Positions 3 through 47,964 of a DNA stretch of 64,000 nucleotides are shown piece after piece (position 1 is the first letter of the stretch; every line of letters begins with the position of its first letter). This stretch comes from an uncultured Actinomycetota bacterium (GTDB lineage Bacteria > Actinomycetota > Actinomycetes > CAVPEL01), in assembly GCA_963703505.1 (NCBI GenBank), contig CAVPEL010000006.1, positions 147,336 through 211,335 of the forward strand, written 5' to 3'. The translations under genes were made by a program, and so were the position numbers. Below the pieces are notes generated by a model, which worked only from the letters and a program-made list of their open reading frames with translations, ran no database searches and was not told where the DNA came from.

Positions 3-506
3 AAGAACAAGGCGGTCGTCCACGGCCGCGTCATCCTGTCCTCGGGTCGGGAGGCCGACTACTACGTCGACCTGCGCCGGATCACGCTGGACGCCGCCAG
101 CGCCCCGCTCGTCGGGGAGGTCATGCTCGACCTCGTGGCCGACCTGGAGTTCGACGCGGTCGGCGGGCTGACCCTCGGCGCCGACCCGGTGGCCACTGCG
201 ATGCTGCACGCCGCCTACGGCCGCGGTCGGGCCCTCGACGCCTTCGTCGTCCGCAAGGAAGGCAAGGCGCACGGTCTGCAGCGCCGGATCGAAGGCCCCG
301 ACGTCGCTGGTCGGCGGGTGCTGGCGGTCGAGGACACCTCGACCACCGGCGGTTCCGTGCTGGAGGCCGTGTCAGCGCTACGGGAGGCCGGCGCCGAGGT
401 CGTCGGCGTCGCAGTGATCGTCGAGCGCGGCGCTGCCGACCGGGTGCGCGGCGAGGGCCTGGAGTACCGCGCGGCCTACTCGCTCGAGGAGCTCGGCCTC
501 GCATGA
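3..506 (+). CDS. pyrE: orotate phosphoribosyltransferase, 5' end cut by the window edge
   Basis: Frame-3 translation from nt 3 (KNKAVVHGRVILSSGREADYYVDLRR...) runs into listed ORF 123..506. PRPP-binding loop VLAVEDTSTTGGS. Stop TGA 504-506 overlaps the next ATG (ATGA). Confidence 0.85.
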   Translation, partial: KNKAVVHGRVILSSGREADYYVDLRRITLDAASAPLVGEVMLDLVADLEFDAVGGLTLGADPVATAMLHAAYGRGRALDAFVVRKEGKAHGLQRRIEGPDVAGRRVLAVEDTSTTGGSVLEAVSALREAGAEVVGVAVIVERGAADRVRGEGLEYRAAYSLEELGLA

Positions 507-1169
507 CGCCGGTCGCCGCGCTCGCCGTGGTCGTGATCCTCGCCGTGTGCGGGGCCGCGATCTACGGCGTGGTGCGCGAGCGCAAACGCCGGGACGCCCT
601 GCGCGCGTTCTGCGCCTCGAGCGGCTGGACGTTCACCCCCTCCGATCCGACGCTCGTCCGGCGGTGGGACGGCGCGCCCGTTCGGGCAGGGCGACAACCG
701 CAAGGCGAAGAACGTGGTGCGGGGGGCGCACGGCGGCCACGATCTCACCGCGTTCGACTACAGCTTCGAGACCCACTCGACCGACAGCAGGGGCAACCGG
801 ACCACCACTACCCACCAGTACCGGGTCGTGGTGCTTGCCCTGCCGGCCTCGCTGCCGGTGGTGACCGTCTCGCCGCACAACGTGCTCACCCGGATCGGTG
901 AGGTGTTCGGCCTGCCGGACATCGACCTGGAGAGTGAGACGTTCAACCGCCGCTTCCGGGTGCAGGCGAAGGACCGCAAGTTCGCCACCGACGTGCTGAC
1001 CCCGCGCACCATGGAGCTTCTGCTCGCCCACCCCGCCCACTCGTGGCGGATCAGCGGCACCGACATCGTGAGCTGGCACTCCGGCCGCACCACCGCCGGT
1101 GACCGTGCTCGAGTCGGCGAGTTTGCTAGGTGGAGTGATCGACTTGGTGCCATCCTTCATCTGGCGTGA
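503..1169 (+). pseudogene. N-terminally membrane-anchored conserved hypothetical protein (possibly the DUF3137 type often found next to LemA), split over two frames
   Basis: ORF 503..901 (TM helix, then ...SGWTFTPSDPTLVRRWDGAP) continues as FGQGDNRKAKNVVRGAHGGHDLTAFDYSFE... in ORF 714..1169. Deleting one C from the CCC run at 677-679 restores a single frame. Confidence 0.5.
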
Positions 1170-1226
1170 CCATGATGCGCGCGCGCCGGAAGCGCGCGCC
1201 ACCGATCCACGAGGGGGCTCGTCACC

Positions 1227-1958
1227 GTGACACCGCTGCTCATCGCACTCGCCGTCGTCGTGCTGTTGGCGCTGGCGGCGATCGTGTCGTACAACCGGTT
1301 CGTCCGGCAGCGCAACCTGATCGCCGAGTCGTGGCGCCAGGTGGACGTCGAGCTGCAGCGGCGCTACGACCTCATCCCCAACCTGGTGGAGACGGTCAAG
1401 GGCTACGCGGCGCACGAGCGCGGGGTGTTCGACACCGTCACGCAGATGCGCAGCCGGGCGATCGAGACCGCCCAGTCCCAGACGGCTGGACCGCAGGCAC
1501 AAGGCCAGGCCGAGGCGGCGCTCGGCCAGGCGCTGGTCAACCTGCGGGCGGTCGCGGAGAACTACCCCGACCTGAAGGCCAGCGCGAACTTTGCCGCCCT
1601 GCAGGGCCAGCTCGCGGAGACCGAGGACCGGATCGCGGCCGGTCGCCGGTTCTACAACGGCAACGTCCGGGTGTTCAACACCCGCGTCCAGACGTTCCCG
1701 TCCTCCATCGTCGCGTCGATGTTCAAGTTCACCGCCGTGGAGTACTTCGAGGTCGACGACCCGGCCGCCCGCGGGCCGGTCAAGGTCGACTTTGGTCAGT
1801 CGTCAGCCCGATCAGCCGTAGCCCGCTCGGCGGCGGCCTTGTCGGCCCGCCGGGTGCGCCGCATCTCCACCACGACCGAGGCGAGTGACAGACCCACCGC
1901 AACCAGCACGACCGGCAGCACGTACTTGTCGATCGGGAACGACTTTCCGACGTTGTAG
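1227..1958 (+). CDS. lemA: LemA family membrane protein; 3' end unclear
   Basis: N-terminal TM helix plus LemA-type sequence (YNRFVRQRNLIAESWRQVDVELQRRYDLIPNLVETVKGYAAHE...FYNGNVRVFNTRVQTFPSSIVA). The expected end is near ...PVKVDFG (~1797), but the frame stays open 160 nt into the convergent DedA gene. A TAG at 1819-1821 is reachable in the +1 frame. Confidence 0.75.
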   Translation: MTPLLIALAVVVLLALAAIVSYNRFVRQRNLIAESWRQVDVELQRRYDLIPNLVETVKGYAAHERGVFDTVTQMRSRAIETAQSQTAGPQAQGQAEAALGQALVNLRAVAENYPDLKASANFAALQGQLAETEDRIAAGRRFYNGNVRVFNTRVQTFPSSIVASMFKFTAVEYFEVDDPAARGPVKVDFGQSSARSAVARSAAALSARRVRRISTTTEASDRPTATSTTGSTYLSIGNDFPTL

Positions 1959-2476
1959 CCCACCAGCAGGATGCTCACCGTCCACGCCACACCGCCGATG
2001 ACGTTCCAGACGGCGAACCGGGCGGCCGGCATCCCCAGCGCACCGGCCACGGGGTTGAGGAACGTCCGCACCAGCGGCACGAACCGGGCGAGCACCACCG
2101 CCTTCCCCGCCCCGAACCGGTCGAACAGCCCTCCGGCCTTGTCGATGTACTCGTGCCGGAACAGCCGGGCGTCGGGTTTGGTGAACAGCCGCGGGCCCGC
2201 CTTCGCGCCGATGTAGTGACCCACCTGGGCGCCAGCGATCGCGGCGATCGGCGCACCGATGAGCAGCGGCATCAGCGGCAGGTGCGGTGAGCCCACCTCG
2301 TGGGTGGCCGCGAACGCCCCGGCCGCCAGCAGCAGGGTGTCACCGGGGAGGAAGAAGCCGATCAAGAGCCCGGTCTCGGCGAAGAGGATCGCGAAGATGC
2401 CGATGAGCCCAAAGGTCGTGATCAACGACTTCGGGTCAAGGACGTTCACTGCAAGGACGTGCGTAGCAAGGGTCAC
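1796..2476 (-). CDS. DedA family inner-membrane protein
   Basis: Intact 226-aa ORF, multi-TM, with DedA-type motifs (FAETGLLIGFFLPGDTLLLAAG...ARFVPLVRTFLNPVAG). Confidence 0.8.
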   Translation of the reverse strand: MTLATHVLAVNVLDPKSLITTFGLIGIFAILFAETGLLIGFFLPGDTLLLAAGAFAATHEVGSPHLPLMPLLIGAPIAAIAGAQVGHYIGAKAGPRLFTKPDARLFRHEYIDKAGGLFDRFGAGKAVVLARFVPLVRTFLNPVAGALGMPAARFAVWNVIGGVAWTVSILLVGYNVGKSFPIDKYVLPVVLVAVGLSLASVVVEMRRTRRADKAAAERATADRADD

Positions 2477-46695: not shown

Positions 46696-46716
46696 GCGCC
46701 ACACGCTTGACGCGAT

Positions 46717-46760
46717 CAGGCCCGGTTCCCCGCAAGGGGGCCGGGCCTGTTTCGCGTTGT
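46717..46760 (+). terminator. intrinsic terminator after ino1
   Basis: CAGGCCCGG (46717-46725) / CCGGGCCTG (46741-46749), with an inner CCCC-GCAA-GGGG stem-loop, followed by TTTCGCGTT. Confidence 0.7.
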
Positions 46761-46916
46761 CAGGGTGCGGCGGCGGTAGTGGGACTCCCGAAGTGATCAC
46801 CATCGACACGCGCCGGACGGCCGAGCGTGCGCCATAGGGCGGCGGGACTGCAGGCGGAGCGGCGGGGAACGGAGCCGGGCGGGCAGGGACGGGGCCGGGA
46901 GCGGTCCCGCACCACC

Positions 46917-47964
46917 TCACCCGACGAGCCGCACCCCGGCGTACGACACCGCGGCGATGAGCACCCACGAGCACAGACCCCAGCAAGGCGGCCCGCAGCC
47001 CGGTGCGCCGCATCGAGGCCACGTGCACGCCGGTCCCGAGGCCGAACAGGGCGGCGGCCAGCGACGTAGGTCTGCATGGTCTTCGCCCCGTCGAGCACAC
47101 CGGCGCCCAGCACCCCGGACGTGCGCAGAGCGATCATCGCGAGGAAGCCGAGCACGAAGAGCGGGACCAGCGGCGGCCGCTTCTCCCCGGGCACCGCAGC
47201 ACCGCGGCGTCGCCGGGAGATGCTCATCCCGGCGACCAACGGCGCCAGCAGGATCACCCGCGACAGCTTGACGACGACCGCGGTGGCCATCGCACCCGGC
47301 ACCGTCGCGGCGGTGGCCACCACCTGACCGACGTCGTGCACGCTGGCCCCGGTCCACATCCCGAACTGCTCGACCGACAGGCCGAGCGGCGCTCGCAAGC
47401 AGCGGCAAGACCGCGATCGCGAGGCTGCCGCAGAGCGTCACCAGTGCGATCGCGGTGACCACGTCCCGCTCGTCGTTCTCGGTGACCCCGTCCATCGCCG
47501 CGATCGCGGAGGCCCCGCAGATGGAGAAGCCGGTCGCGACGAGCAGGGACACGCCCGGGCGGGACGCCGAGCCTGTCGCCGAGCCACCGGGTGCCGAAGA
47601 AGGTGGCGAACACGACGACCACCACGACGAGCAGCGCCGGCCCACCGAGGCGGAGCACCTCGGGGATGGCCAGCTGCAGACCGAGCAGCACGATGCCCAG
47701 CCGCAGGAGCCGCCGCGCGGCCCACCTCGTCCCCGGCCGAGCGGCCTCCGGCACGAGCCCGACGTTCCGAACGATCGCGCCGAGCAGGACCGCGCCGGTG
47801 AGCGGACTGATCGCCGGCACCCAGCGGTTGACTCCGACCGCGGCGACCACGCCGACACCGGTCAGCGCCAGGCCAGGCAGCACCCGACCGCACTCGTCCG
47901 CGATCCGCGAAAGAGCGGGCTGCCGGAACCATCGGCCACGGGCCAGGGCAGCGGTGTCGGCCAT
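46917..47964 (-). pseudogene. YeiH/UPF0324-type (putative sulfate-exporter family) membrane transporter, about 4 frame breaks
   Basis: Fragments: ..LPGLALTGVGVVAAVGV...GAVLLGAIVRN.. | ..LLVATGFSICGASAIAAMDGV.. | ..WTGASVHDVGQVVATAAT...VVVKLSRVILLAP.. | ..AALFGLGTGVHV... | ..LIAAVSYAGVRLVG*. Confidence 0.65.

Follow-up and report, generated by a model that had tools for sequence, protein, structure and literature searches.

Genuine gene decay in bacteria spares indispensable genes, mixes stops, deletions and substitutions, is biased toward deletions, as bacterial pseudogenes are, and raises non-synonymous divergence. For sequencing consensus errors, the described systems are long-read assemblies. 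PacBio long reads are insertion-rich, with error rates of ~8% for insertions, 3% for deletions and 2% for substitutions (10.1101/2021.08.23.457338), frameshift errors depress CheckM completeness, most at low coverage (PMC8103633), and long-read metagenome assemblers produce indels with minority or zero read support, corrupting thousands of genes (10.1101/2025.04.22.649783). The residual indels of Nanopore assemblies are usually removed by short-read polishing (PMC9262707, PMC8812927). The subject of the present analysis is a stretch of 64,000 nucleotides (the window) from the genome of an uncultured Actinomycetota bacterium, corresponding to C6:147336-211335, where C6 is the contig, in which many conserved genes can be followed only by changing reading frame. 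The frame breaks are very probably errors of the deposited consensus and not mutations of the organism, and the broken genes in the window almost certainly represent no real biological feature.

Source genome and procedure

The source genome possesses 3.40 Mb of DNA with 70% G+C in 11 contigs. Its marker-gene completeness is 60.03% and its contamination 0.27%. An origin of the broken genes in the assembly as a whole was first suspected because the contiguity is high yet the completeness is low. The closest relatives in the genome collection belong to the same class only, and the top protein matches were from actinomycetes such as Actinospica, Actinocrinis, Embleya, Thermomonospora and Actinoallomurus.

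As raw lists of open reading frames (ORFs) are useless at 70% G+C, a codon-usage model was chosen. Frames were followed by a seven-state Viterbi frame tracker with the model trained on the source genome itself, and a same-strand frame change in which the upstream frame has no terminal stop was taken as a frameshift-like switch. The borders of dirty and clean stretches were obtained from a two-state segmentation of these events. Per-gene counts were obtained from frameshift-aware alignment against orthologues. The Viterbi path catches only ~60% of the events in the window genes that were checked by alignment, hence the true number of events lies above the Viterbi count. A complete single-contig relative of 2.44 Mb with 67% G+C (G029) served as control genome and was treated in the same way, with a codon model of its own. 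Its ORFs, filtered by composition, were also used as reference proteome against the whole source genome (tblastn), which gave 858 orthologue pairs. The null expectation for insertions was derived by putting a random base into intact orthologous genes and applying the same inference.

Frame breaks are arranged in patches

The tracker called ~50 frameshift-like same-strand switches in positions 1-48000 of the window and only 2 in positions 48000-64000, at 51662 and 61876, both of which are weak gene-boundary calls. At the rate of the first part, 16.6 events would be expected in 16 kb, and the Poisson probability of two or fewer is ~1e-5 (hand calculation). The segmentation divided the window into three dirty and three clean stretches:

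1-14664, dirty patch 1, 30.5 kb in total and starting ~15.8 kb upstream of the window; 51 Viterbi events
14665-23164, clean block with the last polysaccharide-operon genes, including a Polysacc_synt (Wzx-like) gene at 15335-16600; 1 event
23165-35664, dirty patch 2 with purA, GNAT, aminotransferase, purD, purB and purC; 19 Viterbi events
35665-44664, clean block in which the sole break is one extra base in a ponA-like gene near 43080
44665-47664, dirty patch 3 with small regulator-like, ino1-like and YeiH-type membrane genes; 9 Viterbi events
47665-64000, clean block of 23 kb in total; all genes in single frames

By orthologue alignment, dirty patch 2 contains at least 32 events in six genes. 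In the part of dirty patch 1 that lies upstream of the window (C6:131500-147335), dnaK (C6:137237-138967) showed 5 frame changes, and within the window a (GC)n run at ~10774-10784 adjoins the frame switch at 10762/3. The last clean block encodes an MFS transporter, the CCA-adding enzyme, a DUF6049 protein (723 amino acids), MurJ, a kinase-like protein, an ECF sigma factor, thioredoxin reductase and a CwlM-like amidase. Three control genes from clean stretches gave only end-effects of forced alignment. The preliminary description of the window had reported long intact stretches and an intact end of the polysaccharide operon. Both were recovered here, as 14.7-23.2, 35.7-44.7 and 47.7-64 kb are clean by segmentation and the tail of the operon is unbroken. 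Its term "gene-specific" for the breakage has to be replaced, since the breaks track position and not gene identity.

The same mosaic was observed throughout the source genome. The tracker found 2,575 frameshift-like switches (0.76/kb), on every contig, with a variance/mean ratio of 4.5 in 5-kb bins, and 69% of them were of the +1 class. With the same caller, the control genome gave 0.077/kb, a variance/mean ratio of 1.1 and a +1:-1 ratio of 95:92; the comparison with a complete relative, which had been proposed as a check, showed no such excess or clustering there. Because this baseline is ten-fold lower under the same caller, ~2,300 of the events are counted as excess. The segmentation placed 94 dirty patches in the genome, 1.25 Mb in total or 37% of its length, with 1.72 events/kb. 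Their length has a median of 9.5 kb, an interquartile range of 5-16 kb and a maximum of 78 kb. Clean blocks make up the other ~63%; their median length is 18 kb and their density 0.20 events/kb. Inside the patches the events were near-Poisson (variance/mean 1.5), and the dirty stretches carry roughly 2-7 spurious single-base indels per kb. Event density increased 4.5-fold with local G+C; it was 0.33/kb where G+C is below 66.8% and 1.49/kb where it exceeds 73.2%. The two ribosomal RNA (rRNA) operons (C5:143352-148337 and C10:317-5305) are both intact; between the two there are 14 differences, most of which are substitutions. Both are at contig ends, so that the contigs break at the rRNA repeat, and both lie in clean blocks and are therefore uninformative as a non-coding test.

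Broken genes of the window

The broken genes of the window are given below with their strand; the names RtcB-like, ponA-like and YeiH-type are those of the preliminary description:

503-1797, + strand, DUF3137-like gene followed by LemA gene; one switch at 675/676
2579-3609, + strand, fba, class II fructose-bisphosphate aldolase, with 78% identity to the control-genome orthologue; one extra base near 3032-3043
6089-7438, + strand, DegT/DnrJ/EryC1 aminotransferase; 3-4 switches (7160, 7248, 7309)
11160-12593, + strand, RtcB-like gene; 3 switches (11452, 12014, 12105)
23019-24303, + strand, purA, adenylosuccinate synthetase; three single extra bases near 23214, 23893 and 24197
24991-26352, + strand, class-III aminotransferase; ten events and no stop by orthologue alignment
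30694-31939, + strand, purD; three events, extra bases at 30775 and 30887 and a -1 class event at 30978
33419-34734, + strand, purB; eight single extra bases, none missing, and one in-frame TAG
34738-35634, + strand, purC-like gene with a 294-amino-acid orthologue in the control genome; 5-7 events in both directions
42350-44274, - strand, ponA-like gene; one extra base near 43080
44969-46693, + strand, small regulator-like gene and ino1-like gene, by orthologue alignment
46979-47994, - strand, YeiH-type membrane protein; three switches (47062, 47385, 47572)

In the class-III aminotransferase, eight events are extra bases (25739, 25803, 25834, 25910, 25959, 25975, 26051 and 26283) and two are of the -1 class, missing or double-extra (25045 and 25491). 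The protein is 75% identical to its orthologues, and the gene is uninterrupted in relatives. The small regulator-like gene has 3 extra bases (45128, 45351 and 45382), and the ino1-like gene has 3-4 events at 45712, 45947, 46353 and possibly 45602. After frame-following, purA was 85-86% identical to intact orthologues of 427 amino acids. Pfam matches span the frame changes in stitched fba, purA, purD, DegT, Aminotran_3 and LemA, and that of purA reached 616 bits over all 416 positions.

The extra bases of purB are at 33644, 33957, 34039, 34109, 34251, 34303, 34424 and 34626, and despite these eight insertions the protein shares 386 of 434 residues (89%) with an intact orthologue. The in-frame TAG at 34182-34184 stands at a conserved tryptophan of the orthologues, inside the purB motif. 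Six window genes together have more than 30 lesions, of which this is the only one of the substitution type; either a real variant or an infrequent substitution error could account for it. As a separate observation, the homologue with the top score against stitched purB (842 bits) was P0121 (ENA, 544 amino acids), which shows ~110 extra residues in the middle of the protein compared to orthologues of 435 amino acids; these may stem from an insertion, or the gene may have been mis-called in the other assembly.

The statement of the preliminary description that many conserved genes are broken was well founded, and the per-gene alignment counts are close to those given there. Its three breaks each in purA and purD, with the extra base near 30775, and its single break in fba were found again by alignment, as were eight extra bases plus TAG in purB (at least eight plus TAG reported), ten events in the aminotransferase (~9 reported), 5-7 in purC (at least 5 reported) and, by Viterbi, the three switches of the RtcB-like gene. 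The counts for four other genes came out equal or slightly lower, being 3-4 for DegT (~4 reported), 3 switches for the YeiH-type gene (~4), 3-4 events for ino1 (~5) and 1 extra base for ponA (~2); that each of them is broken stands.

Spectrum and context of the lesions

Among junctions which abut without amino-acid gaps, 319 had one extra base and 38 had one missing (~8:1). All resolved breaks in purB (8/8) and purA (3/3) are extra bases. Counted by frame class, the insertion:deletion ratio was ~4:1 in the orthologue alignments and 2.2:1 by Viterbi, a cruder map in which two nearby insertions mimic one deletion. The +1/-1 ratio was constant over all patches, with a variance equal to the binomial expectation, and the idea that shift direction differs between patches was rejected on this ground.

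The inserted base is nearly always unlike both neighbours, genome-wide, examples in the window being 33644, 33957, 34251 and 34303. Resolvable extra bases were singletons in 81% of the cases vs 50% expected (p=6e-6), and insertions that extend a run made up 6.7% vs 26.0% in the null, a four-fold depletion (chi-square p=6e-15). Extra bases were also richer in A/T (39% vs 21% in the null). The sequence around the insertions showed no motif, with at most 0.15 bits per position, and the one-missing-base events showed no run preference, matching the random null. The preliminary description had resolved two breaks to the base as CC->CCC, at 677-679 and 23214-23216. At both places the removal of the adjacent G yields the same protein; at the 675/676 break the extra base is thus either C of CCC 677-679 or the next G. 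An extension of homopolymers of the CC->CCC kind is rejected by the singleton excess and the run-extension depletion, and a homopolymer context of the errors does not hold genome-wide. At equal G+C, dirty patches had 15-25% fewer G/C runs of at least 4 and A/T runs of at least 3 than clean blocks. Homopolymer under-calling was considered as the cause of this deficit but does not obviously account for it, as one-missing-base junctions are few and without run preference.

Several of these features are what a consensus of mixed strains would give, in which both alleles of a mostly synonymous single-nucleotide polymorphism were kept side by side and the patches are regions where two strains were collapsed. 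Each of the 11 extra bases in purA and purB adjoins a third codon position, with which it forms an unlike G/C pair, unlike wobble pairs were found in 28.9% vs 14.9%, and the inserted base seldom equals its neighbour. Under such an origin, insertions should be scarce between codon positions 1 and 2, but 19.0% were observed there vs 20.6% for random insertion, and the wobble-pair excess is fully accounted for by the deficit of run-extending insertions. As the insertions are uniform over the codon positions, the keeping of both alleles was rejected, and mixed strains are considered a very unlikely source of the breaks. It is also highly improbable that at least part of the population truly carries the extra bases in its DNA, for example through localised insertion-prone mutation or as damaged or relic tracts of ~10 kb sampled by the assembler. 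If this were true, the patches would reflect a process in the organism instead of noise in the consensus.

Breakage depends on position and gene length, and no decay is seen

The preliminary description had weighed consensus error in poorly supported patches against real relaxed selection, noting that the broken set was enriched for metabolism and the intact set for envelope and information processing. Pseudogenisation by relaxed selection or reductive evolution, with metabolic genes decaying by indels, would agree with the many broken metabolic genes of the window and with the one real-looking nonsense codon in purB. Analysis of the 858 orthologue pairs pointed in the other direction. Interruption was found in 38% of them, in 66% inside patches vs 19% outside, and among the genes inside patches longer ones are broken more often (39%, 55%, 74% and 95% with increasing length). 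Breakage hence follows kilobase patches and gene length, and not function.

Indispensable genes are not spared. The rpoC gene (C6:806891-810810) has 3 frame changes while its neighbour rpoB is intact, and the interrupted indispensable genes identified by NCBIfam include those of DnaK (5), IF-2 (5), GatA (3), NuoF (4) and GuaB (4); a lyase of the FumC/AspA family, identified in the same way, has 3. Decay is strongly disfavoured by the breaks in rpoC, IF-2, GatA, DnaK and the like, 3-5 in each, because the cell cannot live with these shattered. The functional split is an accident of patch placement, since the clean block mixes thioredoxin reductase and an MFS transporter with MurJ, an ECF sigma factor and a CwlM-like amidase; with metabolic and transport genes intact there and rpoC, IF-2, GatA and DnaK broken elsewhere, it was not upheld. 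In 24 relatives, the orthologues are in a single open frame.

The broken genes are otherwise undamaged. Identity to the control-genome orthologues was 64.9% for broken vs 63.9% for intact genes (p=0.15), and 66.4% for genes with at least 3 breaks. Even the genes with 8-10 indels retain 75-89% identity to orthologues of other families. When purA was compared with 118 orthologues, 2 of 236 invariant columns differed, both beside a stitch junction. Resumptions in the same frame after a stop numbered ~0.5 per 5-kb bin in dirty and 0.4 in clean stretches, and most of them are true gene ends, while dirty bins have ~10 frameshifts each. The remark that the fragments look almost undamaged therefore holds, as divergence is not raised and stops are not enriched in dirty bins, and the comparison of broken with intact genes against orthologues, suggested as a check, gave an equal substitution load. 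With insertions ~8:1 over deletions, in a direction opposite to that of bacterial pseudogenes, and with no excess of substitutions or stops, the relaxed-selection reading was rejected on the broken essential genes, the dependence on patch and length and the equal divergence; real pseudogenisation is accordingly most improbable. Biological recoding, in which programmed frameshifting, transcriptional slippage or non-standard decoding reads through the extra bases, might be suggested by window events that are nearly all +1, but it has a negligible probability, as no motif is shared around the extra bases, which disposes of programmed slippage, the thousands of sites are at random codon positions and absent from 63% of the same genome, and the orthologues in relatives are uninterrupted.

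Probable origin in the consensus

Indel-biased consensus error in poorly supported patches, one of the two readings offered in the preliminary description, agrees with every test that was run, in position, length, spectrum and lack of divergence. In the dirty stretches, the long reads behind the consensus would have been insufficient in number or in accuracy, or effective polishing would not have taken place. The patch size is about that of a long read, and the insertion-heavy, substitution-poor spectrum would fit noise similar to that of PacBio continuous long reads (CLR). An inserted base unlike its neighbours might arise if the consensus was built in run-length-compressed space, or alternatively from a polisher that removed only errors of the homopolymer type. 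Gene callers and six-frame reading would then see housekeeping genes as shattered fragments.

Some points weigh against an origin in the consensus. The lack of read support for the extra bases is presumed from the sequence. No near-identical independent assembly was found in the protein or DNA collections searched; the best matches of purA and purB among 5.8 billion proteins were 86% and 88%, respectively, and the 41-base pattern at the first break, with or without the extra base, had no match in genome or metagenome contigs, from which the window's own record was excluded by design. The lesions differ from the errors in homopolymer length that characterise Nanopore assemblies, and the error process is unusual. 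Taken one by one, the purB TAG, the fba break and the break in the ponA-like gene are indistinguishable from real mutations.

The source genome is the representative of its species, and apparently of its family, in the collection searched. With at least ~2,300 spurious frame breaks, probably more than 4,000, and ~38% of conserved genes hit, the completeness of 60% understates its true gene content, and automated annotation will call truncated proteins and false pseudogenes by the hundred. The bearing of the breaks is on annotation quality only. The 94 dirty patches should be considered for every other feature reported from this genome, among them leader peptides, short ORFs, odd domain fusions and domains that are truncated or "lysine-less". 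The signature of read-length patches, insertions of at least 4:1 and an inserted base unlike its neighbours may help to spot the same artefact elsewhere, and it is possibly traceable to a particular consensus method.

Other features of the window

Positions 26746-27517 form 772 nucleotides without coding signal, in the region of lowest G+C (64.5% over 26-28 kb). This segment gave no Rfam match and no transfer RNA (tRNA), and a search of the whole window for RNA genes and tRNAs found none. In positions 54263-63622 the genes follow the order MurJ, kinase-like, ECF sigma factor, thioredoxin reductase, a small thioredoxin-sized ORF and CwlM-like amidase. This order resembles what we take to be a conserved origin-proximal cluster of Actinobacteria.

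Comparison with known systems

Reductive genomes of the Mycobacterium leprae type, as generally known, resemble the source genome in having many interrupted genes with intact ones interleaved. The four marks of decay known from such genomes, namely the sparing of indispensable genes, the mixture of lesion types, the deletion bias and the raised non-synonymous divergence, are all missing in the source genome. Among the systems with consensus indels, the IDEEL test is reportedly that of Watson and Warr in 2019. Nanopore-only assemblies are alike in that residual consensus indels cause frameshifts (Sereika et al. 2022, PMC9262707; Polypolish, PMC8812927). The errors there are in homopolymers and often deletions, whereas the source genome shows singleton insertions, and its deletions have no homopolymer preference. 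The closest likeness in kind is with the indel errors of long-read assemblies and metagenome-assembled genomes (proovframe preprint, 10.1101/2021.08.23.457338; Cusco et al. 2021, PMC8103633; Trigodet et al. preprint, 10.1101/2025.04.22.649783), where single-base indels also split conserved genes, completeness is depressed despite contiguity, substitutions are rare and local coverage or support governs how strongly a region is affected. The source genome is more specific than these generic long-read errors in two respects, the sharp 37%/63% mosaic of dirty and clean stretches and the avoidance of insertions that duplicate a neighbouring base.

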